From: Mobula hypostoma
Lineage: Eukaryota
NCBI RefSeq assembly: GCF_963921235.1
Contig: NC_086107.1
Location: 112,842,001-112,906,000 of the forward strand
Direction: 5' to 3'
DNA length: 64,000 bases
Below, piece after piece: positions 5,913-61,194 of the stretch. Positions within the stretch are counted from its first letter, which is position 1, and the number at the start of each line of letters is the position of its first letter. The position numbers and the translations under genes are program-made. The notes beneath the pieces are model-generated. The model saw nothing but the letters and a program-made list of their open reading frames with translations. It was not told the origin of the DNA and did no database searches.

Positions 5913-6333
5913 CCTCAAGTCCTCCTTCCCCTTCTCCCCCCACCCCGGTTCACCTATCACCTTCTAGCTAGCCTCCTTCCCTTTCCTCTCCACCTCCTTT
6001 TCCTTCACACTTCCTTCTCGTTCCTGATGAAGGGTCTCAGCCCAAAACGTCGACTGTTTATTCATTTCCATAGATGCTGCCTGCCCTGCTGAGCTTCTCC
6101 AGTGCTTTGTCTGCGTTGCTCAGTGTTACACAAAAATTGGGCATATATGATTTTTTTTTAAAAATCAAGATACAAAGTTTGGTCTATAAAATCCAAATAA
6201 CCTGAAATGTTTAATACCTCAGGCACAATTCTCTTGTTAAAGTTTACCACCAACACCAAAAACTTATAGGTCCAATCAGTAGTTACAAGTTCCTTTTGAA
6301 AACTACATGTAACTTTTAAGAATATTGCATGTA

Positions 6334-13247: not shown

Positions 13248-16200
13248 TGTTAGGGAATCAATCCTCATTCAATCAGGACAGAATGGTATGCCAGGAGATA
13301 GAAAGATATAGCTAAAATTGAGCTCCCAATCCAATAGAATACTTGCATGCCAAGCAATAAAAAAACCCAGCACATAGTACAGGTTACCACACTATGTTAC
13401 AGCATGTTACTAAGGTTCAGTGTTTATGGATTTGGACTACGTACTTTTTCAGTCTTATGGTTCTATATTCTGTGTTTTCACCCATTCTTTTTCTTTGTGC
13501 GGGGGTGGGGCAGGGGGTTTTAGGTGGGGGGGTGCCCATGTTCTTGGTAGTGTAGTGTGTGGAGGGAGCGGGATTCGGAGGATTTGATGTTTGCACTGTC
13601 GTTATTTTTGTGCAGAGGGGTGGGTGGGTTTGTTGTTTCTCTGACCTTTCTTTGGTTCATCTGGAGAATAAGAATCTCAGAGTTGGATACTGTGTTCATA
13701 CCTAGACAATAAACGAACCTTTCGAGCAAGCCAAATGATCACACCATCAGCAGGTTAGATCAAAATTCTAAATTCCTGACATGACCAATTTGAAGAGTGG
13801 AAAATCATTAAAATAAGTTCTGGGCATGCTATGTCGGTATCGGACACATGGTGACACTTGCAGGCCGCCCAAAGCACGTATTCGGACTTCATTGGTTGTT
13901 GACGCAAACACACTTCACTGTATGTTTCAATCACAAACAAAAGAAAATCTGCAGATGCCAGAAATCCAAGCAACAAAGAATGCTGAAGGAACTCAGCAGG
14001 CAGCATCTACGGAAAAAAGTACAGTCAATGTTTCGGGCCACGACCCTTCGTCAGGACTGGGAAGAAAAGATGAGTCAGAGTAAGAAAGTGGGAGGAGAGG
14101 AGGGAAAACCACAAGGTGGTAGGTGAAACTTGGGGGGGGGGGAAGGAGGGAGAAGTAAAGAGGTGGAAAGTTGATTGGTGAAAGAGATGAGAGATACAGG
14201 GCTAGAACAAGGCTGCCCTGCTCATTCCACCGAGATGCAACACAGAGCGCCACAGGAAGTCATTCCTGCCTGTGGCCATCAAACTTTACAACTCCTCCCT
14301 TGGAGGGTCAGACACCCTGAGCCAATAGGCTGGTCCTGGACTTATTTCCTGGCATAATTTACATATTACTATTTAATTATTTATGGTGCAACTGTAACGA
14401 AAACCAATTTCCCCCGGGATCAATAAAGTATGACTATGACTATGACGTTGATTTCTTGAAGTTCCGGTAATGCACCCCCGCCTTCACCATTCCCCTCTCT
14501 CACCTTATCTCCTTACCTGCCCACCACCTCCCTTCTGGTGCTCCTCTGCCTTTCCTTTCTTCTTTCTCTTGTCCTCTGCCATTAGACTCTCCCTTCTCTA
14601 GCCCTGTATCTCCTTCACCAATCAACTTCCCAGTTCTTTACTTCAATCCCCACCCCCGGTTTCACCCATCACCTTGTGGGTCTTCCTCCCCTCCCACCCC
14701 ACCTTCTTATTCTGCCTCATCTTTTTTTCTCACCAGCCCTGATGAAGGGTCTTGGCCCAAAACATCGACTCATAGATGCTGCCTGCCCTGCTGTGTTCCT
14801 CCAGCATTGTGTGTATGCCACTGTATGTTTCGATGTACACGTGACAAGTAAAGCTCATTTTAGCGTTCTACCTTTCTCAAACAGTTATCAGGAGAAAGCT
14901 CCAAGAATACCTCCACCCTCAATGAAAGAGGCCCAATATGAGTCTCAAGTGCAAGGTTAATGCACTCACAACTGCATTTAACTCAGAGTTTGGAGTGGAT
15001 AACCCATCTTGGCTTCCTCATGAGTTGTCTTGTCTTCAGTCAATGTAACGCTCCATAGTGTCAAGAATAGTGACAGTATGGGATGCAAAAAAGGTTATAA
15101 AGGCACACATCAATGTTTGTACAACAGAACTAGCTACACCTCTTGACAATTACAACACCGGCATCTACCCGATCAGGTAGAAAACTTTGCAGGCACATCT
15201 TGTCCATGGAGAGCAGCCAAAATCTAATAAGGTGAAATACTACCAGGTCTGTAGTTAATCATTACCAAATTAATGAAAGCTGCAGCAATTAGTCACAAAT
15301 AACCAGTTTACTGATACCCTGTTTAGGTTCTGCCAAGAAGATAGGCCTAAAATACATCACAGATTCACACAAACATGATCCAGGTATCAGATTTATTTAT
15401 CACATGTACATTGAAACATACAATGAAATGCATCGTTTGTGTTAACAACCAACACACCCAAGGATGTGCTGGAGGCAGCCCGTAAGTTTTGTCATATATT
15501 CTGGCATCAAAATAACATGCTTACAATAGGGGAAATTCCAGGGGCAATGTGAATGAGGCTGACTGTGGCATGAGGGACTTGGGTAAAAATGTAGCCAGTG
15601 AGTATCAAGTGAGAATATTCCAGTGGTTGGAGTCATACCTTACACAAAGGAGGACAATTTTGGCTGATGGAGGGCAGTCACTCTACCTACAGGACAAAGA
15701 CGCAGTTCAGTCCAAGTCGAGGCTACTATAGTGATGAGAGTCTCTCCACAAAGTCATAAATGCAGACATCTAATCATTGCACAACAGATAATTCCATTTG
15801 CAACTCCTCAGAAAATGCAGTAACTCATGCCTGGATGCCACTAAACCTAGATTATGTTCAGGCATGGGTGATAAGTGACAAGCAACATCTGTGTTACAAA
15901 ACTGGCATTTCCTATCTCTAGTAACAGAAGGTCTAACCACCCATCGTTGTCCTTCAGCACATAACAATTGTTCGATTCCCCGCCTTCAACTTCCTGAGGT
16001 CACCACTGAAAACTTTAGCTATAACAGCTGATCAGAAATGGGATATCCTGCAGCAAATGTCACCCCCCCCACCCACATTTCTGATGCCCAAAAATCTACA
16101 AGGTGCATCCAGATGTGCTGAAATGCTCTGGATTGGCCCAACTCCAACAACAGAAGACTCTAAAACAACATGTCCACGTCACTGGCTATCCATCCACCAC

Positions 16201-17250: not shown

Positions 17251-17478
17251 GCAACATACATCAAAGTTGCTGGTGAACGCAGCAGGCCAGGCAGCATCTC
17301 TAGGAAGAAGCGCAGTCGACGTTTCAGGCCGAGACCCTTCGTCAGGACTAACTGACGAAGGGTCTCGGCCTGAAACGTCGACTGCGCTTCTTCCTAGAGA
17401 TGCTGCCTGGCCTGCTGCGTTCACCAGCAACTTTGATGTATGTTGCTTGAATTTCCAGCATCTGCAGAATTCCTGTTG
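17251..17478. mobile_element. Penelope-like terminal fragment forming a perfect 95-bp inverted repeat, nested in the L1 3'UTR
   Basis: Arms 17251-17345 and 17352-17446. 15-bp TSD tttggtataattatt at 17236-17250 and 17479-17493. Confidence 0.88.
17314..17349 (-). ncRNA. Minimal type I hammerhead ribozyme motif (predicted), sense to the AP2A1 pre-mRNA
   Basis: Minus strand AGTC-CTGACGA-A-GGG-TCTCGG-CCT-GAAAC-GTC-GACT. Confidence 0.7.
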
Positions 17479-20400
17479 TTTGGTATAATTATTCGTTACT
17501 TTCCCCAAGTGACCAAAATCTTTATCGGAGCACTTAAATATGCCATCCTATCTTTTGTAAATACGGGCGCCAAATATTCAAAAATGTTACATATTTATCT
17601 CTTAAATTATAAGTAATTTTTTCAAGTGGAATAGAACTGGCCATTTCATTATTCCAACGATCCATACTTAAATACGAATCAGATTTCCAAGTAACTGCTA
17701 TAGTCTTCTTAGCTACTGCCAATGCAATTTTTATAAATTCTTTCTGATATTTATTCAATTTAAGTTTCGGTTTTATCCCTTCAATATCACCTAATAAAAA
17801 TAATACAGGGTTATGTGGAAGTTGAGTTGCAGTAATTTGTTCCAATAAGACTCTTAAATTTATCCAAAAGGGTTGAATTTTAAAACAAGACCAAGTAGAA
17901 TGTAAAAAAGTACCAATTTCTTGATTACACCGAAAACATTTATCAGATAGATTTGAATTTAATCTATTTATTTTTTGCGGTGTAATATATAATTGGTGTA
18001 AAAAATTATATCGTACTAATCTAAGTCGAACATTTATTGTATTTGTCATACTGTCAAGACAAAGTCTTGACCAATTAGTTTCATCAATATTAAGATCTGT
18101 TTCCCATTTTTGCTTTGACTTATGGGTTCCTTGTTTAATTGTCTGTTCTTGAATTAAATTATACATACAAGAAATAATTTTTTTAATTTTCCCTCTTTGA
18201 ATTAAAATTTCAATTTCATTAGGTTTTGGCAAAAACGTTGTTTGACCCAGCTAACCTTTTAAGTAAGCCCTTAATTGAAAGTAACAAAAGAAAGTATTAT
18301 TAGATATTTTATACTTATCCTTTAATTGTTCAAATGACATCAATATACCTCGTTCAAAACAATCTCCTATAAATTTAATCCCTTTTTGGTACCAATTGTA
18401 TAAAAGTTGATCGTCCATTGTAAAAGGAATAAGTCTATTTTGGAACAAAGGTCTCCTTGCTAATAGAGATTTCTGTGTTTCATTATCAACATTTATCTTA
18501 TTCCATAGATCAATCAAATGTGTTAATATAGGAGATTCTTTCTTTTCCTGTATCGATTTAGATTCCCATTTATATATAAAATCTTCAGGTCTATTTTCTC
18601 CTATCTTGTCCAGTTCTATTTTAATCCATGCTGGTTTTCAATCATCGAAGAAAGATGCAATAAATCTAAGTTGATTTGCTTTATAATAGTTTTTAAAATT
18701 TGGAAGTTGTAACCCTCCTAACCCAAATTTACATGTCAATTTTTCCAATGATATTCTTGACATTTTACCTTTCCAAAGAAATTTTCTCACACATTTATTT
18801 AACTCTTGAAAAAATTTCTGTGGCAATTGTATTGGTAATGTTTGAAACAAATACTGTAATCTAGGAAAAATATTCATTTTTACAACATTGACTCTACCTA
18901 CTAATGTTATTGGTAATATCATCCATTTGTCAAGATCTTCTTGAATTTTTTTAAATAGTGGTAAATAATTAAATTTATATAAATTCTTTACATCATTATC
19001 AAGTCTTATACCTAAATACTTTATACCATTTACCGGCCATCTAAATTGGGTTACTAATCGACATTGACTATAGTCTCCTTTAGTAAGAGGTAAAATTTCA
19101 CTTTTATCCCAATTTATTTTGTAACCTGATACCTTCCCATATTCATCCAATCTAGAAGATAATTTATGTAACGAATGTTGTGGATTTGTTAACTCAGCTT
19201 CTTTCTATGAATGCTACCTGATCTGCAGTGTGTTACTAGCATTTTGTTTATGTTGCATTTGAAAGTCTTTGCACATGATCTGATATTATTAAATTGTAGT
19301 ATTTGGTTTAATGCAAAGTTACATCAAGCACTCCAAGGGCTGTCCCAGCATTGGTTAGTCATTGGATTTTAATTGTCCCTTTCTTAAATAGAAGCCATAT
19401 TTGTGCACGCAGTTAAAAAATAGAGCCCCAATACACCCCAGCAGATACCCAATGACATGCAGGTTGCTTCTTTTTAATGAGTTAAAGTTGCCCCAGGTGA
19501 GTTAAAGTGCCAGGTCTAATATCACCTCCCTGAACAAGGCACAGCAGCGCCTCCACTTCCGAAGAAGACTGAGGCAAGCAAGGCTCCCACCCATCTTAAC
19601 TACGATTACAAGAACGTCATTAAGAGTGTCCTGACAAGTTGCATCTCCATCTGGTACGGGAGCATCACACCAGAAGTCCCTACAAAGGACTGAAGGACTG
19701 TGAGAACGACTGAGAGGATTATTGGGGGGGGGGGGGTAAGGTCTTCATACCATCCAACAGGGACATTTATGCTATACCACCAAACACTGACAAGGCAATT
19801 CATTCACTTTTACCAGTTTCTGAAGACCACGTCAGCATTAACATGCCATCTACCCCATGTTGGAAACCACTGTCTTTTTAAAATGATTTTTTAATATATA
19901 AGATTTGTACTTTTAATGAACATGTATTTTTCACAATCATTGGCAGAAAGCTGCATAGTCATAGTCATACTTTATTGATCCCGGGGGAAACTGGTCTTCA
20001 TTACAGTTGCACCATAATTAATAAATAGTAAAAAAACCATAAATAGTTAAATAGTAATATGTAAATTATGCCAGGAAGTAAGTCCAGGACCAGCCTATTG
20101 GCTCTGTTTATCTGTTTATCAACTTTCTCATTCTTCATTGGCCAAGTACCTGCACAATACCCAAATGATGCAATTGTTTTAATTATTTAGCCTATTGATT
20201 TATCTCTATCCAAGGAAATTCTCTCATCTTATCCATAAAAGTTTGATTTCTCAAAAGTGCCATCATTTATTCCTTTGTCTTAAACCCCTTAACTGCAATC
20301 CCCCTCAGCATTGTTTCTCAACTCTATTTAATTTGCTTAATACTTGCATGTTTGTTTGAATTCTAAAATAATGAAATCTTGGAATTAAGACTGCTCGCTG

Positions 20401-25600: not shown

Positions 25601-28425
25601 GTGCTACAGCCAACCTAATGAGCAAGAGCACACATTCATAAGATTGGGAAGTGTTACTATGTAAAGAGGTAGTTGAGAAGCAAGAGAGTTGCTTGCTTAG
25701 GATTTGAAAGGGCTGGAAAATGTAAAGCAAACTAAAAGTTTCAACCATTGAAATGAAGTGTCACTTGCTGTCATGACGGCATGAATATCAATATCGCCTT
25801 CCGGTGCTTTTCCCTTCCCCTTTCCCTTTTCTATTCCCAACTCTAGCCTCTTACCTCTTCTCCTCACCTGCCTATCATCTCCCCTTAGTGCCCCTCTCCC
25901 CCCGCTTTCTCCCATGGTCCACTCCTCCCCCATCAGATTCATTCTTCTCCAACCCTTTACTTTTCCCGTCTGCCCGGCTTCACCTATCACCTTCTAGCTA
26001 GTCCTCTTTCCCCTCCCCACAGCTTTTTATTCTGGCCTCTTTCCTCTTCCTTGTCAGTCCTAATGAAGAGTCTCTGCCTGAAATGTCCACTGTTTATTCA
26101 GTTCCACAGGTGTTGCCTGATCTGCCAAGTTCCTTCAGGAAGTTGCTCTGAATTTCCAGCACCTGCAGAATTGTTTGTGTTCATGGCATTTTTTATCTCT
26201 TTCATAGATTCTGCTGTGCCTGTTATGTGCTTCCAGCAGCTTTATTTTCACTTTTCCCAGAACAGGAGAAACATTAGACACAGACTACACTAGAAATGGA
26301 CAAATTTTAAATGAATTTGATTTGATTTGATAGCGGTATACCTGATAAGAGGCACAGATGGAGCGGACAGTCAGAGACTTTTTCCCAGGGCTGAAGTGAC
26401 TAATGTTAGCGAGGTGGAGGTACATCTCTAGCAAAGAAGGTGTAAGGTGCTCCTTCCCTCTGCTAGCTTACAGGTCACACTTGAGCAAGGTGCAACACCG
26501 CCCCCCCCCCCCCCCCAAGATCAGGATCACAGGAAACCATAGGAGCAGGTGGTAAATCATCATAAGGGCAGCTGGCACATATCAGGGAGCGTTGGGTATG
26601 GGGCTAGCAAACGCATCCTGTAAAAACCCAGAGTTACAAAATTGCCAACAGAAGTTCCAAAAGCCTCAACCCTGAGACAGGAAGGACCGTCGAAGAGTGC
26701 TGCACTTAGGGACAACTCTAAAGACTGGCTCAGGACAAAGGACTCTGGCAAGCTGCTGTCAGTGGCCTATGCCCAGTAGGACCAGTGAGCTTAAAACAAG
26801 AACAATCTCAGGCACATGGATGAAAGAAAAATGGAGGGTGATAGGGGACGGAAAGGTTAGATTGATTTTCAAGAGTATTGTAAAAAATCGACACAACATC
26901 GTGCTCCCAAGGGTCTAATGTGCTGTATAATTCTATGTTCTAATCTGCAGAAACATTAGTTCAAGTCTGCAATCCAAGGGATACCTCCCGTGGAAAACAA
27001 TGAAATTTCCATTGTGGATTCAAATGCATATCAGATGGGCTTTTTCCCCCACAAGAGATTATAAAATATTAGCAACTGGTGACAGGAAGTATGTTGAGTT
27101 CAAATTGGCTTGGGAGAAATGCTTGACACAGGGTCCATGGTTCTCAAAATGGCCGCTTCCCTCAGGGTCATTTCTAGGTTTCGAGGCAGACTAATTGACA
27201 GATAATGGATGGCCATAATTTCACAACAATTCCATTATCACTAGGATAAAAGGCAAGGTAGTTGGACCTTAATCTATTTTGTTTTGCTGCATGGTTGAAT
27301 TGGAAGGAGGTTAGAATGCAATTAATTTCCCAGTGAAGCACATTACCTTCTATTTGACATTGCTAATCAGATGAGATGTTCCAGTTTCAGATTTCAGGCA
27401 AGGGGACAGGGATAGTCTAGTATATATTAACATTGTTAAAAAGAAAGGATATTATGTGGAGGAACTCAATAGGCCTGGCAGCATCCATGGAAAAGAGTGA
27501 ACAGTCGATGTTTCAGGCTGAGTCCCTCCATCAGGAACCACAATGGGTTTCACTCCTGCATCTAATAAAGTGGCTATTAAGTATATATTCCTACAGAAAC
27601 TAATAGCTTTAACTAATATTACTATTGCTTAAAATGTCCAATACAGACACGGGCCATGGAAACGGTTTACATCAACACCTACACTTCACAAACCTGCCCC
27701 CACCCCATATTCTTCTGTTCTCTGCTGCACAACATGTTTATCTAGCTTCCCCTTAAAGGTATTTGACTCAACAACAGCTGTGGTAACGAGTTCCACTTGA
27801 GGAAATACAGACATGGTATTTTTTTAATTTGTCAGTTTGTTTTTTATTTTCTGAATGTACTGTTCTTTCCATTAATTTCCAAGACAATGGCAATTCGTAA
27901 GGAGACCTTCCTCATCATTTTCCAATCAAGAGTCTTTGTCTGTCCACACACTATCAGGAGGTGCATAAATGTGAACAGTGGATCTCTGTGCTTAGAGAAG
28001 ATGGTGTCATAGTTAATCGAGAATAGCAAATAGCCTCCACCTTGTAGCTCACTAGATAGCATGATTGCAATTACTACCTGAGGCAAGGAAGAATATAATT
28101 TCCACAGAAGTGCTAGTGTGTACCTTTTGCAATAGATTTTACACCATCCAGTGTCACTGCCAGATAAGACCAAGTACTTCGGCCAAGAGCTACAACACGG
28201 GATCCCAACCTGGGGCACGCGGACCCCTTCCATAACGGCATTAAAAAAAGATTGGGAACCCGAGCTACTGGGACCCAAGAATCACACATCCTTTTACACT
28301 CTATTGATGCTGCTTCTGTAAGTAGCGAAGTTGTGGAGTTCTTGCCAGGTTTGTGGTCAGTCACCAAATTCGATCAACTTAATCAGTTCTAAAAGGGCAT
28401 CCAATCGACAAATGGGTACTCATAC

Positions 28426-28494: not shown

Positions 28495-31389
28495 CTGAAA
28501 AGAAAGGAGAAAACAATGAGCAATCAGGATAAACAACCACTCCTCCCTCCCCATTATCCTCAAGACAGGTGACCCCCAGGGCTGTATGCTGAGCCCAATG
28601 CTATACATACTGCTCACACACGAATGCAGAGTCAAACACCCAAGTAATCACAATGTCAAGCTCACTGATAACCCGACAGTGGTGGGGCTCAATACTAACA
28701 ATGAGGTCTACAGAGAAGAGGAGGAAGAGTTTGAAGCCTGCTACCAGGCAAACCAATGTCAACAAGATAAAAGAGACGGTTACTGACTTCAGGAGAACTC
28801 ACACCACTCACACTCCTCTTTACATCAGTGGCACAGCAGTGGAAACCGCCAGTAGTTTCAAACTTCGGAGAGTGCACATTTCGCACAACCTCTCATGGTC
28901 CCAGAACACGTCCTCCAGAGTCAGGAAAGTTCAACAACGCCTCTCATTTCTGAAGAGGCTGAAGGGAACTGACTTTGCACATCTATACTCATTTCTACAG
29001 ATGCACAGTAGAGAGCATCCCAACAAGCTGGATCACTGCGCGGTATGGAGACTGCACTGCGGTGGACATGAAGCCTCTATAATGAGTAGTCAAAAATGCA
29101 CAATGGACCACCAGCACCAGCCTACCTGCCAGCAAGAACATATATACAGAAAAGGACCAGTAACATCATGAAGGATCCCACTCACCCTGCTCATGGACTG
29201 TTTGTTCCACTCCCATCTGGGAGAAGGCTAGGTAGCATCCATGCCAGAACTACCAGGCTCGAAACAGTTACTTCCCACAAACAGTAAGGCTCCACCCACT
29301 AACCCACTTCTCCAACACCACTACTGTATCATTTCCTGTCAGTCATCTTCTGCACTGACACTCCACTATCTACTGTCACTTTATAGATGTACAATCAATG
29401 TAAATAAGCTACCTTACATAATTATATATTTAAAACACGAGAGAGAGTCTGCAGATGCTGGAAATCCAAAGCAAAACACACAAAATGTTTGAGGAACTGA
29501 AGTGATCATGCAGTATCTATGGAAAAGGGTAAACAATCGACGTTCCGGGCCAAGGCCCTTTATCAGGCTGAGAATGAAAGGGGTAAGATGCCAAAACTTT
29601 CCTTCACAGTCCTGATGAAGGACTTGGCCCAAAAAGTCGACTGATTACTCTTTTCCATAGAGGCTGCCTGACCTGCTGAGTATTTATATTTAAATAGTTT
29701 CTTAATTATTATGTTCTTTATCTTACTATGGTTTTTGTGCTGCATCAGATCCGAAGTAACAATTATTTTGTTCTACTTTACACTTGTGTACTGGAAATGA
29801 CATTAAATAATCTTGAATCTTGACGTACTTAGAGCAGTGTGGTGATAATAGTAAGAGGTGAAAATCATGAGCTGTTTTGATAAGCAGGGTGAATGAACTT
29901 CTACAAGCAAGATGATTATGCAGCTAACATGGATTAACTTTATTGGAAAAAAATGTAACAATCAAAAGTGCACAGCCTGAACCATTATCTCTTAAACAAT
30001 ATGCTTCAATTATGTCATATCCACTTCTTAAGGATCTAACAAATTAGTCTATACAGCAATACAGGGTTTTATAAATTACAAGAGAAGATAGCAGGTATTG
30101 GTATGTAGTGGTGCGACAAGGCCCCGAGTCCCTAGTGCAAAGAACGACCCAATGTTTGGACGATTTAAACACCAGGCCAGTGGTTTGAAAAGGTAGGGTG
30201 GTGGGACCAGAGGCAGGGGTCAGGCTGGATCAGCTCACTGTTCTGCAACATTTGCTCCGCTCTTCGCTTCAGTGGGGCTGAGGCTCTGGGACGTGTTGCG
30301 CGGAGGCTGAGGGCCTGCTCCATCTGCGTGTCTGCAGGCTCCGCGATATTTGCTCTGCTACGTGCTGAACTGAAGCTGAGGCTGTGGGCCTACTCTGGGC
30401 TTCATGTCTGGGGGCTCTGCGACATTTACTCGGCTATGTACTGAACTGAGGTTGAGGGTTTCGTGTCTGAGGACTCGATTTCGTTCTAAATGTTATTGGT
30501 TTACTTTTATTGTTTGCACGATTTATTATTTGTTTCCTTTCTCTGTGTATTGGGTGTTTGTTGTTTTTTTTTATAAAATGGATTCTTTGGGGCTTCTTGT
30601 TTCATGGTTGTCTATAAGGAGAAAAATCTTAAGGTTGTATAATGTATACATAGATAATAAATGTACTTTGAACTTTCAGGTAAGAAATTCTACAGGTTTC
30701 AAATTTTTTAATTGTGCAAACATTGACACAATACATGAGGGAGTAGAAGGTCTACACATCAGCTTAGGATGTATGGCAAGATCTCATAACTAAAGTCTAT
30801 TACCTACATAGACAACAGCTCTTCTCACCTCTAATTATATATATTTTTAAAAGATCAGAGGTACCCAGATATTGGAAATCACTGACCAGAGTGATATTAA
30901 GAAACATCTTGTGCCCCAGGTAAAATTTGACACCACTTTCAAGAAATTATGTGTTTACATGTAAATTTTAATTACATCACAAAAGTGGCTCAAGTATAAT
31001 AGATTACTGTGAAATGAAAAGCTTGACTCAGGATTCAAGTTTATTTATCAACTGCATCTTGAAACATACGGTGAAATGCATCGTTTGCTTTACCAACCGA
31101 CATCCCCAAGGATGTGCTGGAGGCAGCCCGCAAGTGTTGCCACACATTCCAGCACCAATGTAGCATGCTCGCAATGCTCGGCACAACAACATGACCACAC
31201 AACCAAACACAGCAAGCATTAAAACAACAGCAAAACAAGCTCTGTTCCTCCCACCCACCCATATACACAGTTATCGAACCCCAGGACAAGCCATCTTCCT
31301 TGGCCTCCAGTGGACGAGTCACCAGTTTCGCAAATCCGGGTCTGTGGGCATCTTGGTTGAAGAAATTAATCAAGGTGAAAGCAAAATTC

Positions 31390-34960: not shown

Positions 34961-37009
34961 TCAAAGACTCTAGCAAATTCCTCCAGATACACAATGAAGA
35001 GCTCTCCGACTGGTTGCATCACTGTTTGGTATGGAGGCTCCAAAGCAAAAGATCGAAAGAGACTGTAAAGGGTTGTAGATTCAGCCAGCTCCATCATGGG
35101 CACAACTCTCCCCATTATTAAGAAAAATCTTCAGAAGCTGGTGCATCAAATAGGAAGTATTCATCATTAAGGACCCTCACCATCTGGGACATGCCCTCTT
35201 CTTATTACTGTCATCAGGGAGGTGGTACAGGAATCCGAAGACACACTCAATGGTTTAGGAACAGCTTCTTCCTGTCTGCCATCAGATTTCTAAAAGTCCT
35301 ATGAATAGATCACTGAGTCCCCTTTTGCACTAAATTCGTAATTTTTGTCTTGTACTGCTGCCACAAAACAATAAATTTGTGAGTATATGTCAGTAATAAT
35401 AAATCCGATTCTGATCCTGATCTGAAACAACAGAAGCATCCTAATCAAACAGCTTTTCATCACTACCTAACCAGATTAAGTCTTACTGTGTCAACTTACG
35501 TCATTACAAGCATTTACTCGGCCAATGTAATCTATTTAGACTATGGCTGGACTTTACCAGCCTGTGACATATCAAAATTATATCATCCTCTGTAGAAACC
35601 ACCTGTTCCAATAAATGCTATTATTTTGTATTCCAAATTGTTGCATTTAACACTTAGATTGCACTCTTTTGGCTCACCATCTTAGAATTGATAACTGAAT
35701 CCCTTATCCCCAGAATCAATTACCTACTGCACACCATCCATACTAGCTCCAACACAGACGGTCCCAAGCCCATCTGCGAAAGGAGGAGTGTTGGGCATGA
35801 GGCTCACAACCCCATCCCATGAAAACCCAGTGCAAAAGAAACACCAGAAGCTCTAGAGAGAGGAAGGGTACACCAGGATGGGCTACACCTGGGGACAACG
35901 TGAAAGACTGGCCCAGGACAGAGGATTTTGGTGAACTGCTGTCAGCGACCTACAGCCATAGATGTGATGGGTTGAAGTATGTCCTCTCCGCACTAAGCTT
36001 ATCACTACAGCGGATCCAACATTGATATTCAAATAAACCACACGAAGTGCTGGAGGATCTCAGCAGGTCAAGCAGTAATTAGAAATAAACAAACAAACAG
36101 TCAACATTTTGGGCTAAGACCTCCTTCAGTCCTGAACAGGAGGCTCGGCCCAAAACATTGACTGGTTATTCATTTCCATAGATGCTGCCTGACCTCCTGA
36201 GATCCTCCAGCATTTTGTGTTGCTTTGGATTTCCAGCACCTGTAGACTTATTATATTTAGATATTCAAGTTTTTCTTTAAAATCTCCATCTCATAATCTC
36301 ATCTTTGATCTTTGCCTACCTTAATGTTATCTCTTAAACTATGGATTTCCTCACACTTTACTCCTAAAACTCTTCAGATTGAACATATAAAATACAATTC
36401 TGATATGAACTAACTGTGGTACAGTAGCAACAGTTAGCGCAATGTTGTACAAGATCGAGCTTCAATTCCTGCCGTTGTCTCTGAGCAGCTTGTATTTTCT
36501 CCCCCTGACGTCATGGATTTCCTCCAGGTCCTCCGACATTCCAAAGATGCACGGTTAGGGCTAGTGAGTTGTGGCGACGCTAGGTTAGCACCGGAAGTGT
36601 GGCGACACTTGCGGGCAACCCAGCACAATCCTCACTGATTTGACTTGATACAAACAATGCATTTCTCTGTTCTGAAGTATTCGTGACAAAGCTGATCTCT
36701 ATTTTATCTTTTAAGATGCAGGCATTCTCTCATTTCTCAGGCAATGGGATTTTCAGTTTAAGAACTGAAGCTTAATTTCCCAGCTCCCATGGCAACACCC
36801 AAGAATTTCATCTGTCTCCCCTGGTATGGTCACCATATAAAGCTTTTCTTCCCCCTATTTTCCGACACAGACAAAACCCCCTCATGGATGGCTGTGAAAA
36901 CAGAACACTTTTACCAGAGGAGGGGCTTCATTCTCCCTCAATCCTGCAAGTTGTTGTGTCTTTGTCCATTGATTCTTTCACCACGTACCCATACTAAAAG
37001 GACAACTTA

Positions 37010-37655
37010 TGGTCCGGTGCTCCCAACGCAGCCTCCTCTACATTGGCGAGACCCATTGTAAGTTGGTGGACCACTTAGTCGAGCACCACTGCACCATACA
37101 TCACAAGTGAGACTTCCTGGCAGCAAAACATATTAATTTCAATTCCTATTCTGACATGTCAGTCCATGGTGTCCTCTTGTGCCAAGATGAGGCCACCCTC
37201 AGGGTGGAGGAGCAGTACCTTATATTCCACTGGGTAGCCTCCAACCTGATGGCACCAATATCAATTTCTCTTCCCGGTAAACAAATCCTACCTCCCACCC
37301 CCCATTCCTCACTGACCTCCTGCTTCTTCTCAGCTGCCTATTACTTACCCCAGGTCACCTCCTCCTTCCCTTTCTCCGATGGTCCATTCTCCCTTCTTAT
37401 TAGATTCCTTCCTCTCCAGCCCTCGACCGTTCTCACCGACATGATTTCACCTATCACCTTCCATCTAGCCTCCCCCCCCCCCACTTTTTTTTATTGTGGC
37501 ATCTTCCCCCTTCCTTCTCAGTCCGGAAGAACGGTCTGAGCCCAAAACATCAAGTGCTTATTCATTTTCATAGATGCTGCCTGACCTGCCGAGTTCCTCC
37601 CGCATTTTGTGTGTGTTGCTTTGGATCTCCAGCATCTGCAGACTCCCTCGTGTTT
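37010..37655 (+). mobile_element. Degenerate Penelope-like element with GIY-YIG endonuclease remnant
   Basis: CSQRSLLYIGET at about 37018-37053 and EEQYLIFH downstream, followed by the same terminal sequence with a decayed hammerhead motif. Confidence 0.8.
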
Positions 37656-37735
37656 ACAATTAATGGTAGTCTGTCTTTGGGATGTGGGAGTTAACTGGAA
37701 TATTGGGGTGGGGGATAACCTACATGGTTACGGGG

Positions 37736-46742: not shown

Positions 46743-48158
46743 ATTCCTAGATCCCTTTGTTCTACCACACTCCTCAGTGCCCTACCGTTCACTGTGTAAG
46801 CCCGACCCTAGTTGGTCCTACTAAAGTGCAACAACAGGCAAGGCTTCTACTCTAATACTACTCTCACGTTTTTAATTCAGTCCCAAATGACCAGTTCTCA
46901 TCAAAATAACAATTGTATGTTTATCTCATCAAAAATAGATTCAAAAGATTCTAAGATTCAAAGGTTGAAAGTACATTTATTATCAAATAATGGATGAATT
47001 ATACAGCCTTGAGATTTGTCTGCTTACTGGCAGCCACAAAGCAAGAAACCTGAAGAACCCAATTAAAGAAAAAAAAGACCAACACCCAATGTGTAAGAGA
47101 AAGAAAAAGATGACAAATCATGCAAACAATTGAAGTGAACAGCTACATTCCGAACCAAATTGAGTCCTCAGATCGGAACCCCAGAGTAGGCCCAAAGCCT
47201 CACTTATCAGTTCATCATTTTAGTGGGCATGGTGCAGAGCAGTCGGGGCAGTCATCATACCCTCAACACCATGGAGAAAGGAGTGCTCATCATGGAGAAT
47301 GAGCGAAATCGGCTCCTGCCCCGGATCTTGTCACTCTTGTCTTTTCAGTCTATCTGGGCCAGTGTTTAAACTGACCAAACGATGGAAAAGTAAAAGTCTC
47401 TGGTGCCCAGGAGAGAGGAGTGAACATTGTGGAGAGCAAGCAAAATCATTCTCGCCTCTGATCTGGGGTGGCGGTTACATAGTCTAAACAGCGGATCGTA
47501 CCTCGCACTAGGATCTAACTACGGCAAAGGAACCGGGATCTTCTAACTGATTCCTCATCTTTTTTTCCTCCAGTCCTGCTGAAGGTTCTCAGCCCGAAAC
47601 GTCGACTGTACTCTTTTCTCTAGATGGTGCCTGGCCTACTGAGTTCCCCTAGCAGTGTAGATGTCTTGGCTACTATGGAGGCTAGTACCTATGATGGAGC
47701 TGACTAATTTTATAGCTCTCTGCAGCTTACTTTGATCCTGTGCAGTAGAGCCACCCCTCGCCCCCAATACCAGATGGCGATGCAGGGGGATTAACAAGCA
47801 AAAAACTAAATAGAACTAAGGTACAGTTTTGACAAGGTCTATCTGAATGGTGGAACAGGGCTTGAGGAATGGTGGGTCAAGACGCATCTGAGGAAGACAA
47901 TAGGAGTCAACATTTCAGGTCAAGCCCCTTCATATACATCCAAGTTCACATATATCCTAAATGATCCTAAATATATTCAATGACTAAAAATCCACGTTTC
48001 ATTACCCCTCAAAACTAATCAATAAGCTTCAAGGGCTTGGCCTCAATACCTCCTTGTGAAAGTCGGATCCTTCAATTCCTCACTTGCAGACCCCAGTCAG
48101 TTCAGATTGGCAACAACATCTCCACATTCTCCATCAGCACAGGAGCTCCCTGCTCTAC

Positions 48159-48885: not shown

Positions 48886-49644
48886 TCTACTCGTTTTACA
48901 CTTATGACTATGTGGGCTAAGCACAGCCATATTCACGTTCGATGACGACACCACTGTTGTCGGGCAAATCAAAGATGGTGACGAATCAGCCTATAGGAGA
49001 GAGATTGAAAATCTGGCTCAGTGGTGCCACGACAACAAGCTTTCACTCAACGTCAAGGAGCTGATTATTGATTTCAGGGAACCAGATATCCATCAACTAG
49101 TACTCACTGGAGGATCAGAGATGGAGAAGATCAGCAACTTTAAATTCCTTGGTGTTATTATTGTGGAGGACCTGTCCTGGGCCCAGCACGTAAGTACAAT
49201 TATGAAGAAAACATGGCAGCACCTCTACTTCCTTAGGATTTTGTGAAGATTTGGAATGACGTCTAAAACATTGACGAATTTCTATAGATGTGTAGCGGAG
49301 AGTGTATTGATTAGCTGTATTACACCTATATGGAAACACCAATGCCTTGAACGCCAAAGCCTACAGAAAGAAGTGGGCACGGCTCAGTCCATCGCAGGTA
49401 AAGACCTCCCCACATCTACGTGCAGCGTTGTCGCAGGAAACAGCACCAACCATCAGGGACCCCACCACCCAGGTCACACTCTCTTCTCACTGCTGTCATC
49501 AGGAAGAAGGTACAGGAGCCTCAGGACCCACAACACCAGGTTCAGAAACCTTATTACCTCACTGCTGTCAGGCTTTTGAATCAAAGGGGATAACTTCACT
49601 CGCTCTCTCACTGAAATGTTCCCACAGCCAATGGACTTACTTTC

Positions 49645-49880
49645 TAAACACAAAATAATCTGCAGATGCTGGGTTCAAAGCAACACTCACAACACGCTGG
49701 AGGAACTCAGCAGGTCGGGCAGCATCCGTGGAAATGATGAGTCGACGTTTCGGGCCGGAACCCTTCGTCAGGACCCCTTCCCTCTTCAGTCCTGACGAAG
49801 GGTTCCGGCCCGAAACGTCGACTCATCATTTCCACGGATGCTGCCCGACCTGCTGAGTTCCTCCAGCGTGTTGTGAGTGT
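49645..49880. mobile_element. Penelope-like terminal fragment forming a perfect 92-bp inverted repeat
   Basis: Arms 49683-49774 and 49789-49880. 11-bp TSD gacttactttc at 49634-49644 and 49881-49891. Confidence 0.88.
49788..49823 (+). ncRNA. Minimal type I hammerhead ribozyme motif (predicted)
   Basis: AGTC-CTGACGA-A-GGG-TTCCGG-CCC-GAAAC-GTC-GACT. Core boxes present, stem I AGUC/GACU, stem II GGG/CCC, palindromic ACGU in place of stem III. Predicted cut after 49819. Confidence 0.75.
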
Positions 49881-51811
49881 GACTTACTTTCAAGGACTCT
49901 TCAGCTCATATTCTTGATATTTATTGCTTATTTATTTTTTTTTCTTTTTATATTTGCACAGTTTGTTGTCTTTTGAACACTGGTTGAACGCCCAGTTGAT
50001 GTGGTCTTTCATTGATTCTAATATTGTTATTATTCCATTATGGATTTATTGAGATTGCCTGCCAAAAAATGAATCTCAGGGTTGTACGTGGCGACGTGTA
50101 CGTACTTTGATAATAAATTAACTTTGACTTGACTTTGACTTTTGACCCTCCTATGGGGAAAAGACCTTCAAAGATTTACAATCCACTGATTGACCCGATT
50201 GTCCTTACAAGCACACCTGTTTTCCTCATGTTCTTCAGGGATGAAAAATGTTGCTGTTGAACCCTTAACTGTGGAGCATAGGCCATTGTTAACCTCCCAT
50301 CCCCATCGTCCTCGGTTCTGAGCCAGTTTCTTGAGGGTGGACTAGGAGCTCATCTGTTTTTCTGATATTCTTCAGGGGATGAAAAATGGCTTTGCTACAA
50401 ATGCCTCTGCGTTGACTCATAACTATCTTTGAAAATGACCCAGCAAATGAGTCAAATTAGAATCGGAATCAGGTTTATAATTACCAACATATGTGTTGTC
50501 TTGTGGCAGCAGTACAGTGCAAGAAATTTTAAAAAATATCTGTAATTGCAATCATTAACTAAATAGTGGGAAGGTGGGATAGTGAGGTCATGTTCATGGG
50601 TTTATGGGCTGTTCAGAAATCTGATGGCAGAGGGGGAGGAGCCATTCTTAAAGGTCAGGTGGGGATCTTCAGGCTCCTGTACCTCCGACTCAACATGCTG
50701 ACACCCAGGAACTTGAAGCAGCTCACCTCTTCCACCTCTGACCTTTCAATGAGGTCTGGTGTGCGTTCTCCCACCTTTCCCTTCCTGAAGGGCACAATCA
50801 GTTCCCTTGGCCTTGCTGACTTTGAGTGTGAGATTGTTATTGCGACACCACTCGACCAGCTGATCTAGCTCTACCCGGACACCTCCCTGTTTGCACTTGA
50901 GACTCTGCCAGCAGCAGAGGTGTCATCAGTGAACGTTCAGATGGTGTTTGAGCTGTGCCTAGACACAGTTGTGAGTGTTGTGACTATTAATCATGGTTGG
51001 CACCGAAATATGTGGCGACACTTATGAGCTGCACCTGGGGTGTATCTTTAGATTGCATTAACTGTCAGTGCAAACAATGGCTTTCACTGTATGTTTCGAT
51101 GTCTTCGTCTTCTTAACCCCATCACCCCTTCTGGGACCTAGGCTGCCAATATCAGCTCTCTTTGTTCTGGGTAAGTCTTTCATTTTGCCCTAGGTATCTT
51201 CTTGGTGAGGATCCTTCCTCTCCTAGGGATGAGATCTTTGCAGCTTCTTCTGGCATTTCTGTAGCTCTGGGTTTTTACAGGATAGGTTTGCTAGCCCCAT
51301 CCCCAACCGTCCACCTTTCATACTCGGGCTTAGGACTGTCCAAGGCAGGGTTACGTTTCCATTTACACGTGATAAATAAAATGAATCTGAGTCTGGATAA
51401 AATGGTCCTCAACTCCTTCAGTGCCAGCTTGACGCTTGCCAGTGGTGGAATGTAGACTGCATCCGGGATGATGGTGGAGAACTCCCTCGGCCAATAGAAT
51501 GGAGGACACTTGAATGCCAAGTGTTCCAGATAGTAATGCTAGCATTGCCAGTGTGTTCAAATCCTGTGAGAAAGCAGAATCAAAGAGAAGAATCTCATGA
51601 TTTGTTGGATACTGGAAAGAACATTTCCTTTTCAGAAGAGGTTGACAATCTCCCCACCACCGAGCACATCCACAAGGAACGCTGCCTCAAGAAAGCAGCA
51701 TCTATCATTGGGGACCTTCACTCCCTGGACCATGTTCTCTTCTCGCCTCTGCCATCAGGAAGGAAGTACATGAGCCTTCGGTCCCACTCTACCAGGTTCA
51801 TTCACCTCTGC

Positions 51812-54815: not shown

Positions 54816-54977
54816 CAGATTGATTTATCACATATACATGTTAACATTCAGAGAAATGCATCACTTTGCATTAACACCCAGCACAATCTAAAGATGAAGT
54901 GGGGAAAGCCTGCAGAAGAGCCGCACTTTCTGGCACCAACAGAGCTCAGCAGCACAACACATCTAAGCAGAATCAAA

Positions 54978-55526
54978 CAACACACATCAAAGATGCTGGT
55001 GAACGCAGCAGACCAGGCAGCATCTCGAGGAAGAGGTACAGTCGACGTTTCAGGCCGAGACCCTTCGTCAGGACTAACTGAAGCAAGAGCTAGTAAGAGA
55101 TTTGAAAGTGGGAGGGGGAGGGGGAGGGGGAGATCCAAAATGATAGGAGAAGACAGGAGGGGGAGGGATAGAGCCGAGAGCTGGACAGGTGATTGGCAAA
55201 AGGGATACGAGAGGATCATGGGACAGGAGACCCAGGGAGAAGGAAAAGGGGGGGGGAACCCAGAGGATGGGCAAGGGGTGTAGTCAGAGGGACAGAGGGA
55301 GAAAAAGGAGAGAGAGGAAAAGAATGTGTGTATATAAATAAATAATGGGTGGGGTACGAGGGGGAGGTGGGGCATTAGCGGAAGTTAGAGAAGTCAATGT
55401 TCATGCAGGGTCTCGGCCCAAAACGTCGACTGTACCTCTTCCTAGAGATGCTGCCTGGCCTGCTGCATTTACCAGCCAATTTGATGTGTGTTGCTTGAAC
55501 TTCCAGCATCTGCAGAATTCCTCGTG
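54978..55526 (-). mobile_element. Truncated Penelope-like element with inverted terminal copy (same subfamily as 7989-8669)
   Basis: Contains the MNIDFSNFR* end of the ORF and the polypyrimidine 3' region. TSD taagcagaatcaaa at 54964-54977 and 55527-55540. Confidence 0.85.
55040..55075 (-). ncRNA. Minimal type I hammerhead ribozyme motif (predicted)
   Basis: Same 36-nt motif as 17314-17349. Confidence 0.7.
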
Positions 55527-58024
55527 TAAGCAGAATCAAAGGTGTGGATGAATTAGCATACAGGAGGGAGATTGAAAACTTGGCTGACATATGTCATAAC
55601 AACAGCCTCTCACTCAATGTCAGCAAGACCAAAGAATTGATTGTAGGCTTCAGGGGAGGGAAACCAGAGGTCCACGAGCCAGTCCTCATTGGAGGATCAG
55701 AGGTGGAGAGGGTCAGCAAATTTAAATTCCTCGGTGTTTTTATTTCGGAGGACCTGTCCTGGGTCCTGCACAACAGCACCTCTACTTCCTTAGTAGTTTT
55801 GAAGATTCGGCATGACATCTAAAGCTTTGACAAACTTCTATAGATGTCTAGTGGAGGATATATTGACTGGCTACATCATGGCCTGGGATGGAAACAATAA
55901 TGTTTTTGAATGGAAAACCCCCGCTAAAAGGTAGTGAATTCGGCCCAGTACATCAGGGGCAAAACCCTCCCAACCAATGAGCACATCTACATGAAACACT
56001 GTCATAGGAAAGCAGCATTCATCACCAGAGATCCCTCACCACCCAGGCCATGCCCTCTTCTTGTTGCCGCCATTAGTTAGAAGGTACGAGAGCCTCAGGA
56101 CTCGCACCACCAGGTTCAAGAACAGTTACTACCCCTCAACCATCAGGCTCTCGAACAAAAGGGGACAACTACACTCACTTGTCCATCCACAACCAGTGAT
56201 CTCACTTTAAGGACTCTTTATCTTGTGTTCTCATTATTTATTTCTATTTATTTACATTTGCATTTGCACAGTGTGTTGTCTTCTGCACTCTGGTTGATCT
56301 TTCATTGATCCTGTTATAGTTACTATTCTATAGATTTGCTGAGAATGTCCATAGGAAAACGAAACTGAAGGTTGTACATGGTAACATATATGTACTTTGA
56401 TAATAAAATTTACTTTGAACTTTGAAATATTGATCAGATTTACCATTTACCACCTGTAGTATCTGAGAATCAATGCTGCCCATTTTGAAAGCCAGCATCA
56501 GCCAGTCTTTCATCTTTCTCATAGTCATAGTCATGGTCATACTTTATTGATCCCGAGGGAAATTGGGTTTCATTACAGTTGCACCAACCAAGAATAGAGT
56601 ATAGATATAGCAATATAAAACCATAAATAATTAAATAATAATATGTAAATTATGCCAGGAAATAAGTCCAGGACCAGCCTATTGGCTCAGGGTGTCTGAC
56701 CCTCCAAGGGAGGAGTTGTAAAGTTTGATGGCCACAGGCAGGAGTGACTTCCTATGACGATCTGTGCTGCATCTCGGTGGAATGAGTCTCTGGCTGAATG
56801 TACTCCTGTGCCCAACCAGTACATTATATAGTGGATGGGAGACATTGTCCAAGATGGCATGCAACTTGGACAGCATCCTCTTTTCAGACACCACCGTCAG
56901 AGAGTCCAGTTCCATCCCCACAACATCACTGGCCTTACGAATGAGTTTGTTTTTTCTGTTGGTGTCTGCTACCCTCAGCAAAGGCTGCTCTACTAATTTC
57001 TCCCGTCATAATAGAGGACTTAATGTTTATCCAAACTCTTATCCTTCTGCCGTGTTTTACTTCCCACTCTCTTAACCTGTGGGTTTACTTTGCTACTGGT
57101 TTGCACCTCATCTTTGCGTTGACAGCAGATTTGGACACATAACACCGTCTTCTCATCAAAGCCATTGATAAAAATGAGGGAAAAAAGCTGAGGCCTATAA
57201 GCCGGTGGTATCCCATTAACTACAGCCTGCCAACTCTAAGTCAAGTCAAATTCCCAGCCCTGGAGGACACCTACAGCTCTCGCTGCCTAAGGAAAGCTAC
57301 AAGCATCTGTAAGGACAATACACACCCATGCAATCATCTGTTTGAACTTCTTCCATCTGGCAGACGTTATAAGATTTTCTATGCCCGCACTTCCAGACTG
57401 AAAAATAGCCTTTTCCCCAGAGCTATAATTGCTCTGAACCAATCGATCAAGTATCATCCATAAATCTGTTATATTGCCACTTTAATACGGTTTTGTGGCT
57501 GTCATGCATCTGAGTTGTGCTTTTGTACTGCTGGACAGTGCTTGCACTGGCTGGTTACTTGATTTTATTTATTGTTTATTTTATTTGTTGTTTTATAGCA
57601 TTGAGTACGAGAATTACAAACTCATTTTCACTGTATAGGTGCATGACAACTGTACTATGCAATGACAATAAAGATATTTCATTTCATTTTATTTATCATC
57701 ATTCAAATTTATACATGCATATAATGTATATAACCATATAACGTACTGTATATAGAAATGATATGCAGTGGAGTCTCCTGCCTGATGGTAGAAAGTCAAA
57801 GAGGATGCTGGATGGATGGGTGGGATCCTTCATACACAATACAATGTTGGAACCAATGCAGGGCAGTAGCAGAGCGGTTACGGCAATCGCTTTGCAATGC
57901 CAGTGGTCAACCGATTGGAGTTCAGTCCCCACTGCTGTCTGTAAGGAGTTTGTACGTTCACCGCTGTCACGGGGTGGGTTTCCTCCATGTTAAAATACTT
58001 AGGGTTAGTGAGTTGTGAGTGTGT

Positions 58025-59242: not shown

Positions 59243-59397
59243 AATGTTTCAATGTACAATGTTCAATGTTCAAGGTAAAGTTAATCTTCTTCATCTTTAA
59301 TGTGTTTATCCTTTCTCTGTTTTCTGTCTACTTATTAATTCTTATCCTGGTTATGTCACCTCTCCAATCTCAGTCCTGGTGCAGGGTTTCAGCCTAA

Positions 59398-60077
59398 AGG
59401 CTGATTTATACTTCTGCATAGTAGCCTACAGCGTAGCCTATGCAAGTGGCCTACGCCATTGTAAGCACCTATACTTGTGCGTTGGTGTGTCTACGTTGCT
59501 CTGCAATTCACTGCCAAAACGCTAGTTGGCAGTGGGGTTTCTATGCCACTGTGTTGAGTTTCTTCGTGTTGAAACTCAGGACGAAGAAACTCAAACTTCA
59601 AACAATGACGACTGAAATTGAAGGAGGGTGAATTTTCTGTGCTTGTCCGACCACTAAGAGACATGGACAAGGAAATGTATTTCAAAAATTTTTGGATGTC
59701 GGCTGGTAGATTTGATGATTTGGTTCATCATCTCCAACCATTTATTTTGCATCAGTGTATGCACAGTATACTCAGAGACTGGCAACCACCATTCAAGTTT
59801 TAGCTTCAGGTGGAAGTCAACAGGCTGTAGCAGCTAGCTACAAACTGGCGTCAAGCACAGGGTCCTCCATATGTTCGGAGGTCTGTAAAGCTTTGGAAGC
59901 TATTGCAGTGTGGGAGGAAATGCGATGCTACCAAACGGACCAATCACAGTTGCTGTGGTCTGCATCGCCACAACGCGTAGTTACATTTTTGGGGAGGTGC
60001 ACGTCAGGCTACGGCATAGGGTACATGGCTATGCCGTACCTACAGCGTAGATTTGATGCAGAAATATAAATTGGCCT
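59398..60077 (+). mobile_element. Non-autonomous PIF/Harbinger element
   Basis: TIRs AGGCTGATTTATACTTCTGCAT / ATGCAGAAATATAAATTGGCCT with TAA TSDs at 59395-59397 and 60078-60080. Transposase N-terminal remnants [16 protein letters not shown] and [20 protein letters not shown]. Confidence 0.85.
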
Positions 60078-60299
60078 TAACACGTTGACAATTCCTTCCC
60101 CCTCCTTCCCTCAAGATTCTGTTCGAACTGCTGAGTTCCTTCAGCAGGTTGTTAGTTGCTATTAATTCTCAGTCAACATTATTATTATTTATTATTCCCA
60201 ATTCTGTGAGCCTTAATTTTCCAAGGAACTGGAATTTGTCTGCCAAGTGCTAATTAGAGCGTATTTGTCAGCTCCCCAGATTGCCTGGTGTTACCTATT

Positions 60300-60550: not shown

Positions 60551-61194
60551 TCACCTTCTCTTTTACCCCATTCTTCCTCCATGGGTCAGTCCGGTTTCAA
60601 ATCTTCACTGGAAGATTTCATGTCCAACATTGTAATTTCAATCACCAGCCACCAGAGGGCACTGTGTGGCAAACCGTGTTACAGTCTGTCTTTAACTAAC
60701 AATTGCCAAAACGGTCAAATATTTTGAGGAGCATTTAAGTTCATAAGTCTTGCACATACGTTTGCAATTAATAATTGAGAAACCCTAACCCAGACAAAAT
60801 AGTGCTGAGAAACACACACAGAATGCAGGAGGAACTCAGCAAGTCTGGCAACATCTGCGGGGGGGAGTAAGCAGTCGACATTTCGGGCACAGACTCTTCA
60901 TCAGAACTGGGAAGAGAGGGGGAAGGGGAAGAAGAACAAGCTGGAAAGTGATAGGTGAGACTAGATGAGGGGGAAGGTGGGTGGCTGGTGCAGTAAGAAG
61001 CTGGGAGGTGATTGTTTGGAGAGGTAGCTCACTGAGTTCCTCCAACATTCTGTGTGTATTTCTCAAGATTTCCAGCTTCTGCAGAATCTCTTGTGTTTAA
61101 AATAGAAGTGACCCTAATATGCACAAAATCTGAGTTAGCACTTTCATAAAGCTTCTTCTCATTTTCATCGATCAAGCCAACACTCTTCGTGCAA

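Follow-up and report, generated by a model that had tools for sequence, protein, structure and literature searches.

The window (the entire 64-kb stretch of DNA analyzed here) encompasses, on the minus strand, what short motifs indicate to be the first five coding exons of an AP-2 alpha adaptin gene (near 44540, 28470, 22670, 20790 and 16670), and one of these exons yields a Pfam Adaptin_N match. The introns in this part of the gene (16600-44570, minus strand), of 16, 6, 2 and 4 kb, are filled with repeats. Also present are a broken LINE ORF2 at 17534-19204 (minus strand), presumably of the L1/Tx1 type by resemblance; other LINE reverse-transcriptase ends with long open frames at 52909-53679 (weak Pfam RVT_1 match), 58118-58627 and 62648-63562 (no Pfam match); a young repeat family with six copies that are 85-94% alike (2363-2898, 5331-5853, 14221-14446, 19954-20104, 48538-48782 and 56518-56979); and a tandem repeat array of ~630 bp with a C-rich strand (61130-61760).

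Dispersed across the same DNA is a 36-nt motif that the first-pass annotation described as a recurring minimal hammerhead ribozyme. The motif is real: when up to 3 mismatches are allowed, the window yields 11 matches compared to 0 in 100 dinucleotide shuffles, and the exact pattern occurs, as reported, at 49788-49823 (+), 17314-17349 (-) and 55040-55075 (-), the two minus-strand copies carrying G-U rather than G-C at pair 10.1-11.1. The 49788 copy lies ~5.2 kb upstream of the adaptin start codon, and many other copies are intronic. Its parts are listed below, with the numbering taken from established hammerhead knowledge and from the covered parts of PMC4209133.

49788..49823, plus strand: intact minimal type I hammerhead, from the pattern scan
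49788-49791 with 49820-49823, plus strand: stem I, 4 bp
49792-49798, plus strand: CUGACGA box
49799, plus strand: extra A
49800-49803 with 49808-49811, plus strand: stem II, 4 bp, with a 4-nt loop
49812-49815, plus strand: GAAA
49815-49818, plus strand: palindromic ACGU, no loop 3
49819, plus strand: C17, the predicted cut falling after this base

The CUGANGA, GAAA and NUH core elements come in the type I order, and the original view of stem III as a palindrome in need of a partner is upheld by ACGU as the majority sequence and by the lack of loop 3. An extra A separates positions 9 and 10.1 in 21 of 22 copies; the 10.1-11.1 pair is G-C in 10, G-U in 4 and other in 1 of 15 copies; and hammerhead position 7 is C in 8, U in 8 and A in 4 of 20 copies, the motif containing no conserved ATG. 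With every feature listed for that class found, the window motif is, judged by its sequence, the minimal hammerhead (min-HHR) of Penelope-like elements (PLEs). The covariation in stems I and II that the first-pass annotation put forward as a check is not seen: among 15 copies, which are related subfamilies from one window and hence of low power, none of the 8 pairs shows a two-sided change, and stem pairing (88%) equals that in the shuffled control, so that the structure is argued from the core boxes and from analogy. In the predicted fold, the monomer forms a rod (-11.9 kcal/mol) whose CUGACG box is base-paired with the cut site, and the active double hammerhead is predicted at -14.7 kcal/mol compared to -23.8 kcal/mol for two inactive monomer rods, in models that leave out the tertiary core. 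This predicted preference for inactive rods would fit a need for protein help, as in the anole element discussed below. Neither single motifs nor arms stand out by folding z-score (-0.31 to -1.60, two positive).

An ungapped scan over 31 positions (N7 and loop II left out) gives 22 hits, of which 20 score 23-31, above the best score (21) in 30 simulated control windows, whereas those at 47940 (-) and 59372 (+) score 20, the chance level. A BLAST search with six arms as seeds finds 25 intervals that correspond to 24 arms, or ~25 with the weak 59372 copy. All 18 positions previously listed as decayed or truncated hold a copy, the one at 59371 being the weakest. The three copies named as intact do match, but this list overlooked the mirror partners of two of them, 49740-49775 (-), which is intact, and 17352-17383 (+), which is core-intact. 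Likewise, the estimate of one motif per ~3 kb stands as a density of copies (~25 arms in 64 kb, one per 2.6 kb) but not of insertions, which number only ~16. That repeat annotation would miss the motif proved correct for Rfam, with no hammerhead family in the window at E up to 1; the published PLE hammerheads came from a structure descriptor rather than Rfam (PMC4209133, covered parts). The single Rfam match in the window, a microRNA, was judged to be due to chance. The exact pattern has 0 matches in viral contigs and metagenome contigs. The 47860-47940 segment (-) is a very decayed hammerhead-like copy with a chance-level score and different downstream sequence, perhaps from an older PLE family.

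Protein remnants upstream of the motif, as initially pointed out, identify the parent element.

8120..8308, plus strand: C-terminal end of a GIY-YIG domain, 62 aa, 90% identical to Mobula hypostoma LOC134353856
~37010-37280, plus strand: second GIY-YIG remnant, in the single copy 37005..37656

All five longer proteins that match the 8120-8308 frame come from Mobula hypostoma (90%) or Hypanus sabinus (75-83%) and contain a reverse transcriptase (RT), a CX3-4CxxC linker and GIY-YIG; judging by these matches, the host is probably a batoid of the stingray kind. The PLE origin is thus supported by a GIY-YIG remnant that lies directly upstream of the motif and is 75-90% identical to five RT + GIY-YIG proteins. 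The relatives detected by profile search are 750-950 aa long and contain the DKG, YxDD, linker and YIG motifs, with the linker ahead of the YIG motif in 31 of 35 relatives of at least 700 aa and in the 4 ray proteins examined. In close relatives, the YxDD reverse transcriptase precedes GIY-YIG (below the Pfam cut-off); the window itself holds the GIY-YIG end only, and no full-length copy of the element is found in its 64 kb. A CX2-5CxxC linker is a mark of Neptune and Nematis (PMC8557442, covered parts), and the parent is accordingly classed, putatively, as a Neptune-type, endonuclease-bearing PLE, its clade being read from the linker motif alone.

The copies of this element in the window are the following.

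1853..2340, plus strand: two short-ended arms in a head-to-tail partial tandem, each with a decayed hammerhead
5140..6120, plus strand: single short-ended copy from the ORF end, with another repeat (5331-5853) inside; hammerhead 6020-6055
7991..8671: inverted insertion with a 15-bp duplication; tailed arm (-) 7991-8119; short arm (+) with ORF end, UTR and hammerhead 8573-8608
13934..14817: older inverted insertion with a 16-bp duplication (15/16); tailed arm (-); short arm (+) starting at the ORF end; joint occupied by another repeat (14221-14446)
17251..17481: mini insertion; intact hammerhead 17314-17349 in the short arm (-); tailed arm (+) beginning at 17352, its hammerhead without the 5' strand of stem I; arms 88/88 identical, 4-nt microhomology at the joint
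17236-17250 and 17479-17493: 15-bp duplication of the 17251 insert
25774..26181, plus strand: single tailed copy beginning in the last ORF codons; hammerhead 26056-26091 decayed
27457..27538, minus strand: lone truncated copy
29434..29681: old mini insertion with a 10-bp duplication; tailed arm (-), short arm (+) 29607-29681 with its 3' end cut back
36035..36256: old mini insertion with a 9-bp duplication; short arm (-), tailed arm (+), 6-nt microhomology at the joint
37005..37656, plus strand: single tailed copy with GIY-YIG remnant, UTR, decayed hammerhead 37520-37555 and tail
47553..47658, plus strand: lone copy; hammerhead 47572-47607, with a core change
49634..49644, plus strand: left target-site duplication of the 49646 insert, 11/11; the site is present once in the paralogous host repeat 56114-56297
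49646..49774, minus strand: tailed arm of a mini insertion, with a second intact hammerhead (49740-49775); 81/81 identical to the 49775..49880 arm
49775..49880, plus strand: short-ended arm of the same mini insertion, with 13 nt of UTR, hammerhead and ~57 nt
49881..49891, plus strand: right target-site duplication of the 49646 insert
54973..55527: inverted insertion with a 14-bp duplication; short arm (-) with intact hammerhead 55040-55075, UTR and last ORF codons; tailed arm (+) from 55407
59360..59407, plus strand: weak, strongly decayed copy
60808..61098: inverted insertion whose 7-bp duplication is within chance; hammerhead 60873-60908 in the short arm (-), none in the tailed arm (+), which begins at 61032

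Three of the six copies of the young repeat family lie inside or adjoin PLE inserts, and the 17251 insert sits in the 3' part of the broken LINE ORF2. Fragments of the tail region without a hammerhead occur at 19204-19262 (+) and 60115-60156 (+), the latter after a pyrimidine run, which would fit a deletion of the motif.

Sixteen of the ~25 arms form eight head-to-head insertions (7991, 13934, 17251, 29434, 36035, 49646, 54973 and 60808), a structure absent from the first-pass annotation. Flank duplications score 9-15 in seven of these (9-16 bp) and 7 in the eighth, compared to 1 of 156 mismatched-flank controls that reaches 9 and 8 of 156 that reach 7; for five single or tandem copies, the search for target duplications gave scores of 4-6, within chance. 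An empty site is recognizable for the 49646 insert, whose flanks, aligned separately, meet and overlap at one site of a paralogous host repeat, and two contigs of one public run skip this insert. The arms end at two GU-rich points, ~60 and ~96 nt past the cut site, 35-37 nt apart. Every inverted insertion combines one tailed and one short arm (8/8; p 0.004 under free choice for each arm, in a small sample with one short arm cut back), and in 6 of the 8, the short arm extends further 5', neither arm containing the other, which is not significant alone. In 9 tailed arms, the tail forms an 8-bp helix with the segment that precedes the short end, with one two-sided change. Ten of the 16 arms start within approximately -26 to +12 of the first motif base, and none starts at the cleavage site, which implies that the templates were uncleaved; the cDNAs run across the scissile bond. 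Microhomology at the joint amounts to 4 nt (17349), 6 nt (36128) and possibly 6 nt (8119), and none is seen at 49775 and 55406. The arms are identical in the 49646 (81/81) and 17251 (88/88) inserts, and these two inserts (17251-17481 and 49646-49880) differ from other copies by 8-11% and ~19%, respectively; they are either young inserts from variant sources or products of arm-to-arm conversion. The 17251 insert shows no GC bias and its GCG variant recurs in two Mobula gene models, so this variant is probably a subfamily trait rather than a result of GC-biased arm-to-arm conversion.

Dispersed single copies decay at the neutral rate. The core is unchanged in 8 of the 22 copies, and in 4 of those the stems and the palindrome are intact as well, two of the four having G-U at 10.1-11.1. 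G12 is the general base of the hammerhead; this catalytic base lies inside a CpG and is A in 8 of the 22 copies. Across the 22 aligned copies, changes affect 62 of 217 cells at CpG positions, 21 of 284 at non-CpG stem positions, 8 of 187 at non-CpG core positions and 53 of 239 in the spacer just downstream of the cut, a stretch in which the subfamilies differ. The expectation that the core boxes are better conserved than the flank thus holds in direction (8/187 against 53/239), but the size of the contrast is inflated by subfamily differences, a register shift and the non-independence of arms; a Fisher test of the core against the downstream block (p 3e-5) was set aside given the non-independent rows and the register shift in the block. 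All 11 core positions and the stems are common to subfamilies that differ by ~20% around them, and such constancy of the core across ~80%-alike subfamilies points to selection in the source elements.

Three of the four intact copies are locked with an antisense twin inside near-perfect hairpins of ~100 bp (-208 to -213 kcal/mol), and the fourth (55040) is 84% complementary to a partner at a distance of 312 nt. Four copies between the mapped adaptin exons are in the sense orientation, of which only 17349 is intact, and it is hairpin-bound. No intact head-to-tail pairs lie close together within the 64-kb window, and in the sole head-to-tail pair (1853-2340), both motifs are damaged. Most copies are therefore not working ribozymes, and the initial notion of a catalytic repeat family does not apply to the family as it lies in the genome, with 4 of 22 copies intact, G12 lost at the neutral CpG rate, no covariation and no nearby intact head-to-tail pair; 'ribozyme-bearing', also used initially, is the correct wording.

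The very large size of this family, as originally surmised, is supported by the window density and by contig matches. In mapping to the contigs of 4 of 24 listed public runs (85% likeness, region 49600-49920; depths are not copy numbers), two large runs have 25,281 of 21,294,172 and 19,874 of 20,913,867 contigs matching this region, and two runs guessed to be RNA have 5,455 of 1,736,423 and 4,180 of 1,264,532. Some of the matching contigs fall on the flanking host repeat, and the depth is highest over the arms. The motif-bearing PLE family is very abundant in several related organisms. In 40 of the 42 rows of sequence changes, those in 49788-49823 outside loop II are C>T and G>A at CpG and one T>C at the last base. 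Contig ends do not pile up in this mapping, which says nothing about cleavage, since RNA ends are not visible in contigs.

The 5' edge of the hammerhead also has the appearance of a splice acceptor. Stem I opens with AG (or CAG) after a pyrimidine run in 12 of the 14 copies that keep the upstream sequence (one lost, one gap-shifted), and the run followed by CAG (or CAG-TTAG) is seen, for example, at 49787-49789 and 8569-8574; the pyrimidine run is unspecific as splice evidence, the whole UTR being ~80% pyrimidine. The intron known from Drosophila virilis Penelope (PMC2377424) extends as far as the 5' end of helix I (PMC4209133; both as covered). In two Mobula gene models (P0008 and P0009, one of them a STARD3NL isoform), the hammerhead region appears as coding sequence, which suggests exonization or annotation noise, and in one of the two, the motif peptide begins at the position expected for such an acceptor. 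In older copies (~14464 and 37277), the ORF stop is overlapped by a possible donor, and a Hypanus gene model (P0004) continues in another exon at this point. We treat an acceptor at the 5' edge of the motif as a lead only.

The motif is very probably a minimal type I hammerhead in the pseudo-LTR of a Neptune-type PLE that spread in a ray-like cartilaginous fish, maintained by selection in the source lineage, with the dispersed copies being dead-on-arrival stubs that decay neutrally. Selection would keep the motif only in the lineage of active source elements, where the RNA would be cut after GUC, most likely as a protein-assisted dimer in which two pseudo-LTRs pair their ACGU palindromes, the most likely role being the processing of tandem transcripts. 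The stubs would carry the motif only because it is located 60-100 nt upstream of both start points of reverse transcription. As to how the stubs arise, we infer that the endonuclease makes nicks staggered by 9-16 bp, that a cDNA is primed at each nick, one per start site, that both cDNAs stop early, often near the hammerhead 5' edge, and that their 3' ends are joined, sometimes via 4-6 nt of microhomology, to yield a head-to-head insert with one tail. The covered parts of PMC11167929 describe an anole PLE protein that nicks and extends both strands, with two start sites bounding the tail and an uncleaved RNA template, and a hammerhead that cuts only with the protein.

The regular pairing of one tailed with one short arm could reflect an asymmetric dimer of the RT-endonuclease acting in a single event, where the tail site, 35-37 nt downstream of the short site, is always used by one subunit and the short site by the other, the two perhaps positioned one behind the other on the same RNA. 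We put this forward tentatively, as somewhat less than an even prospect: it would explain the single tail (8/8), the shorter reach of tailed arms (6/8) and the private variants common to young arm pairs, but the finding that in vitro the start site did not differ between strands (PMC11167929, covered parts) counts against assigning one start site to each strand. A fold-back, in which a single cDNA or antisense template self-primes at the joint palindrome and a later template jump adds the tail or the longer 5' part, has been proposed for rotifer PLEs (PMC3846280, covered parts) and would account for the complementarity of 4-6 nt at the palindromic joints 17349/17352 and 36128, as well as for the identical arms of the two best-kept mini insertions. 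Plain self-copying is nevertheless insufficient for the 6 of 8 insertions in which the tail and the further 5' sequence are on different arms, so that an extra template jump is required wherever neither arm contains the other; with no microhomology at 49775 or 55406 either, we consider the fold-back rather unlikely. That the compact 220-250 bp inserts, four in number, have inverted ends and target duplications could also suggest ~230-nt palindromes moving whole as a non-autonomous, MITE-like or retrozyme-like unit. This is the least probable of all the readings considered, given that the joint and subfamily sequence differ in each of these inserts, which grade into longer ones that reach the ORF, that tandem arrays are lacking in the window and that stem III is minimal rather than of the canonical retrozyme form.

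With regard to the motif itself, it is unlikely, but not negligibly so, that it is no ribozyme even in the source elements and is kept as a protein-binding or splicing signal. In the anole system, hammerhead mutants did not lower insertion in vitro and no RNA read ends at the cut site (PMC11167929, covered parts), Naiad PLEs thrive without a hammerhead (PMC8557442, covered parts), and stem I begins with an AG preceded by a pyrimidine run, similar to a 3' splice site; yet the anole motif does cut with protein, and all 11 core positions and the stems stay constant across subfamilies that are ~20% different around them. The opposite extreme, a genome rich in functional ribozymes that cleave host or read-through transcripts, could draw on the four intact copies, on related sequence in thousands of contigs from the two runs guessed to be RNA, and on the trans-dimers conceivable at such a copy number. 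We nonetheless deem it very unlikely because G12 and the ACGU palindrome are lost neutrally, three of the four intact copies are sequestered in hairpins, the window has no intact head-to-tail pair, and the rod predicted for the monomer has the core base-paired to the cut site; moreover, min-HHR monomers are inactive and dimers weak (PMC4209133, covered parts). Under the preferred reading, of stubs left by a ribozyme-bearing source lineage, the ribozyme aspect extends a known class to a further host group and a very high density, and the short, often young inserts with sharp ends and target duplications make up a natural dataset in which inverted, one-tailed PLE insertion can be studied by counting. 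If the asymmetric dimer is correct, the stubs record the mechanism of PLE insertion, and many young inserts could test the one-tail rule. Possible side effects on the host would come from near-perfect 100-bp hairpins in introns and from the motif edge that resembles a splice acceptor.

The known systems compared here are taken as described in the covered parts of the papers cited. The inserts share the head-to-head inverted repeat, the tail at one end and the short duplication with the PLEs of PMC3846280 and PMC8557442, and display the PLE hallmark of an inverted, 5'-truncated pseudo-LTR with a tail (35-37 nt, 30-40 bp being typical of the class) and a target duplication. Unlike the inserts in these two papers, both arms in the window are often cut to ~100-140 nt; the presence of exactly one tailed arm in 8 of 8 is, set against them, a feature of the window, and the duplications span 9-16 bp compared to 8-10 bp in the rotifer examples. 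With PAc, a Poseidon element of Anolis carolinensis (Frangieh et al. 2024, PMC11167929), the family shares a hammerhead upstream of two tail-bounding start sites and an uncleaved RNA template, but PAc belongs to the Penelope/Poseidon clade and has its start codon inside the hammerhead, whereas the window family has a Neptune-type linker and no conserved ATG.

Non-LTR retrozymes, reported in one chondrichthyan genome, have the same type I hammerhead and PLE pseudo-LTR origin (PMC7229834; bioRxiv 10.64898/2026.07.22.740005; covered parts). Retrozymes are, however, head-to-tail tandem units with complete hammerheads, whereas the window copies are scattered, most of them single or head-to-head, and include one decayed partial tandem (1853-2340) in which both motifs are damaged.

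The closest match is with the min-HHR of PLEs, for which Cervera and de la Pena 2014 (PMC4209133) reported thousands of dispersed copies in fish, coelacanth and Xenopus, and opposite-strand pairs 100-700 bp apart. Common to these and the window motif are the type I form with no loop 3, the palindromic 15.2-16.2, the extra base at 9/10.1, G10.1-C11.1, the short stem I, the pseudo-LTR location and the mostly dispersed single copies with opposite-strand pairs; stem II comprises 4 bp in the window motif, shorter than the 7-8 bp of schistosomes. The covered text parts of that paper and two of its three supplementary files make no mention of cartilaginous fishes. The window density, if typical of the genome, would be far above the 4,000-9,000 motifs of coelacanth and Xenopus, although the latter were counted with a strict descriptor. 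The motif is not surprising: the hammerhead type, the high copy number and the opposite-strand pairs were all published in 2014, and the window is an ordinary example of an established kind.
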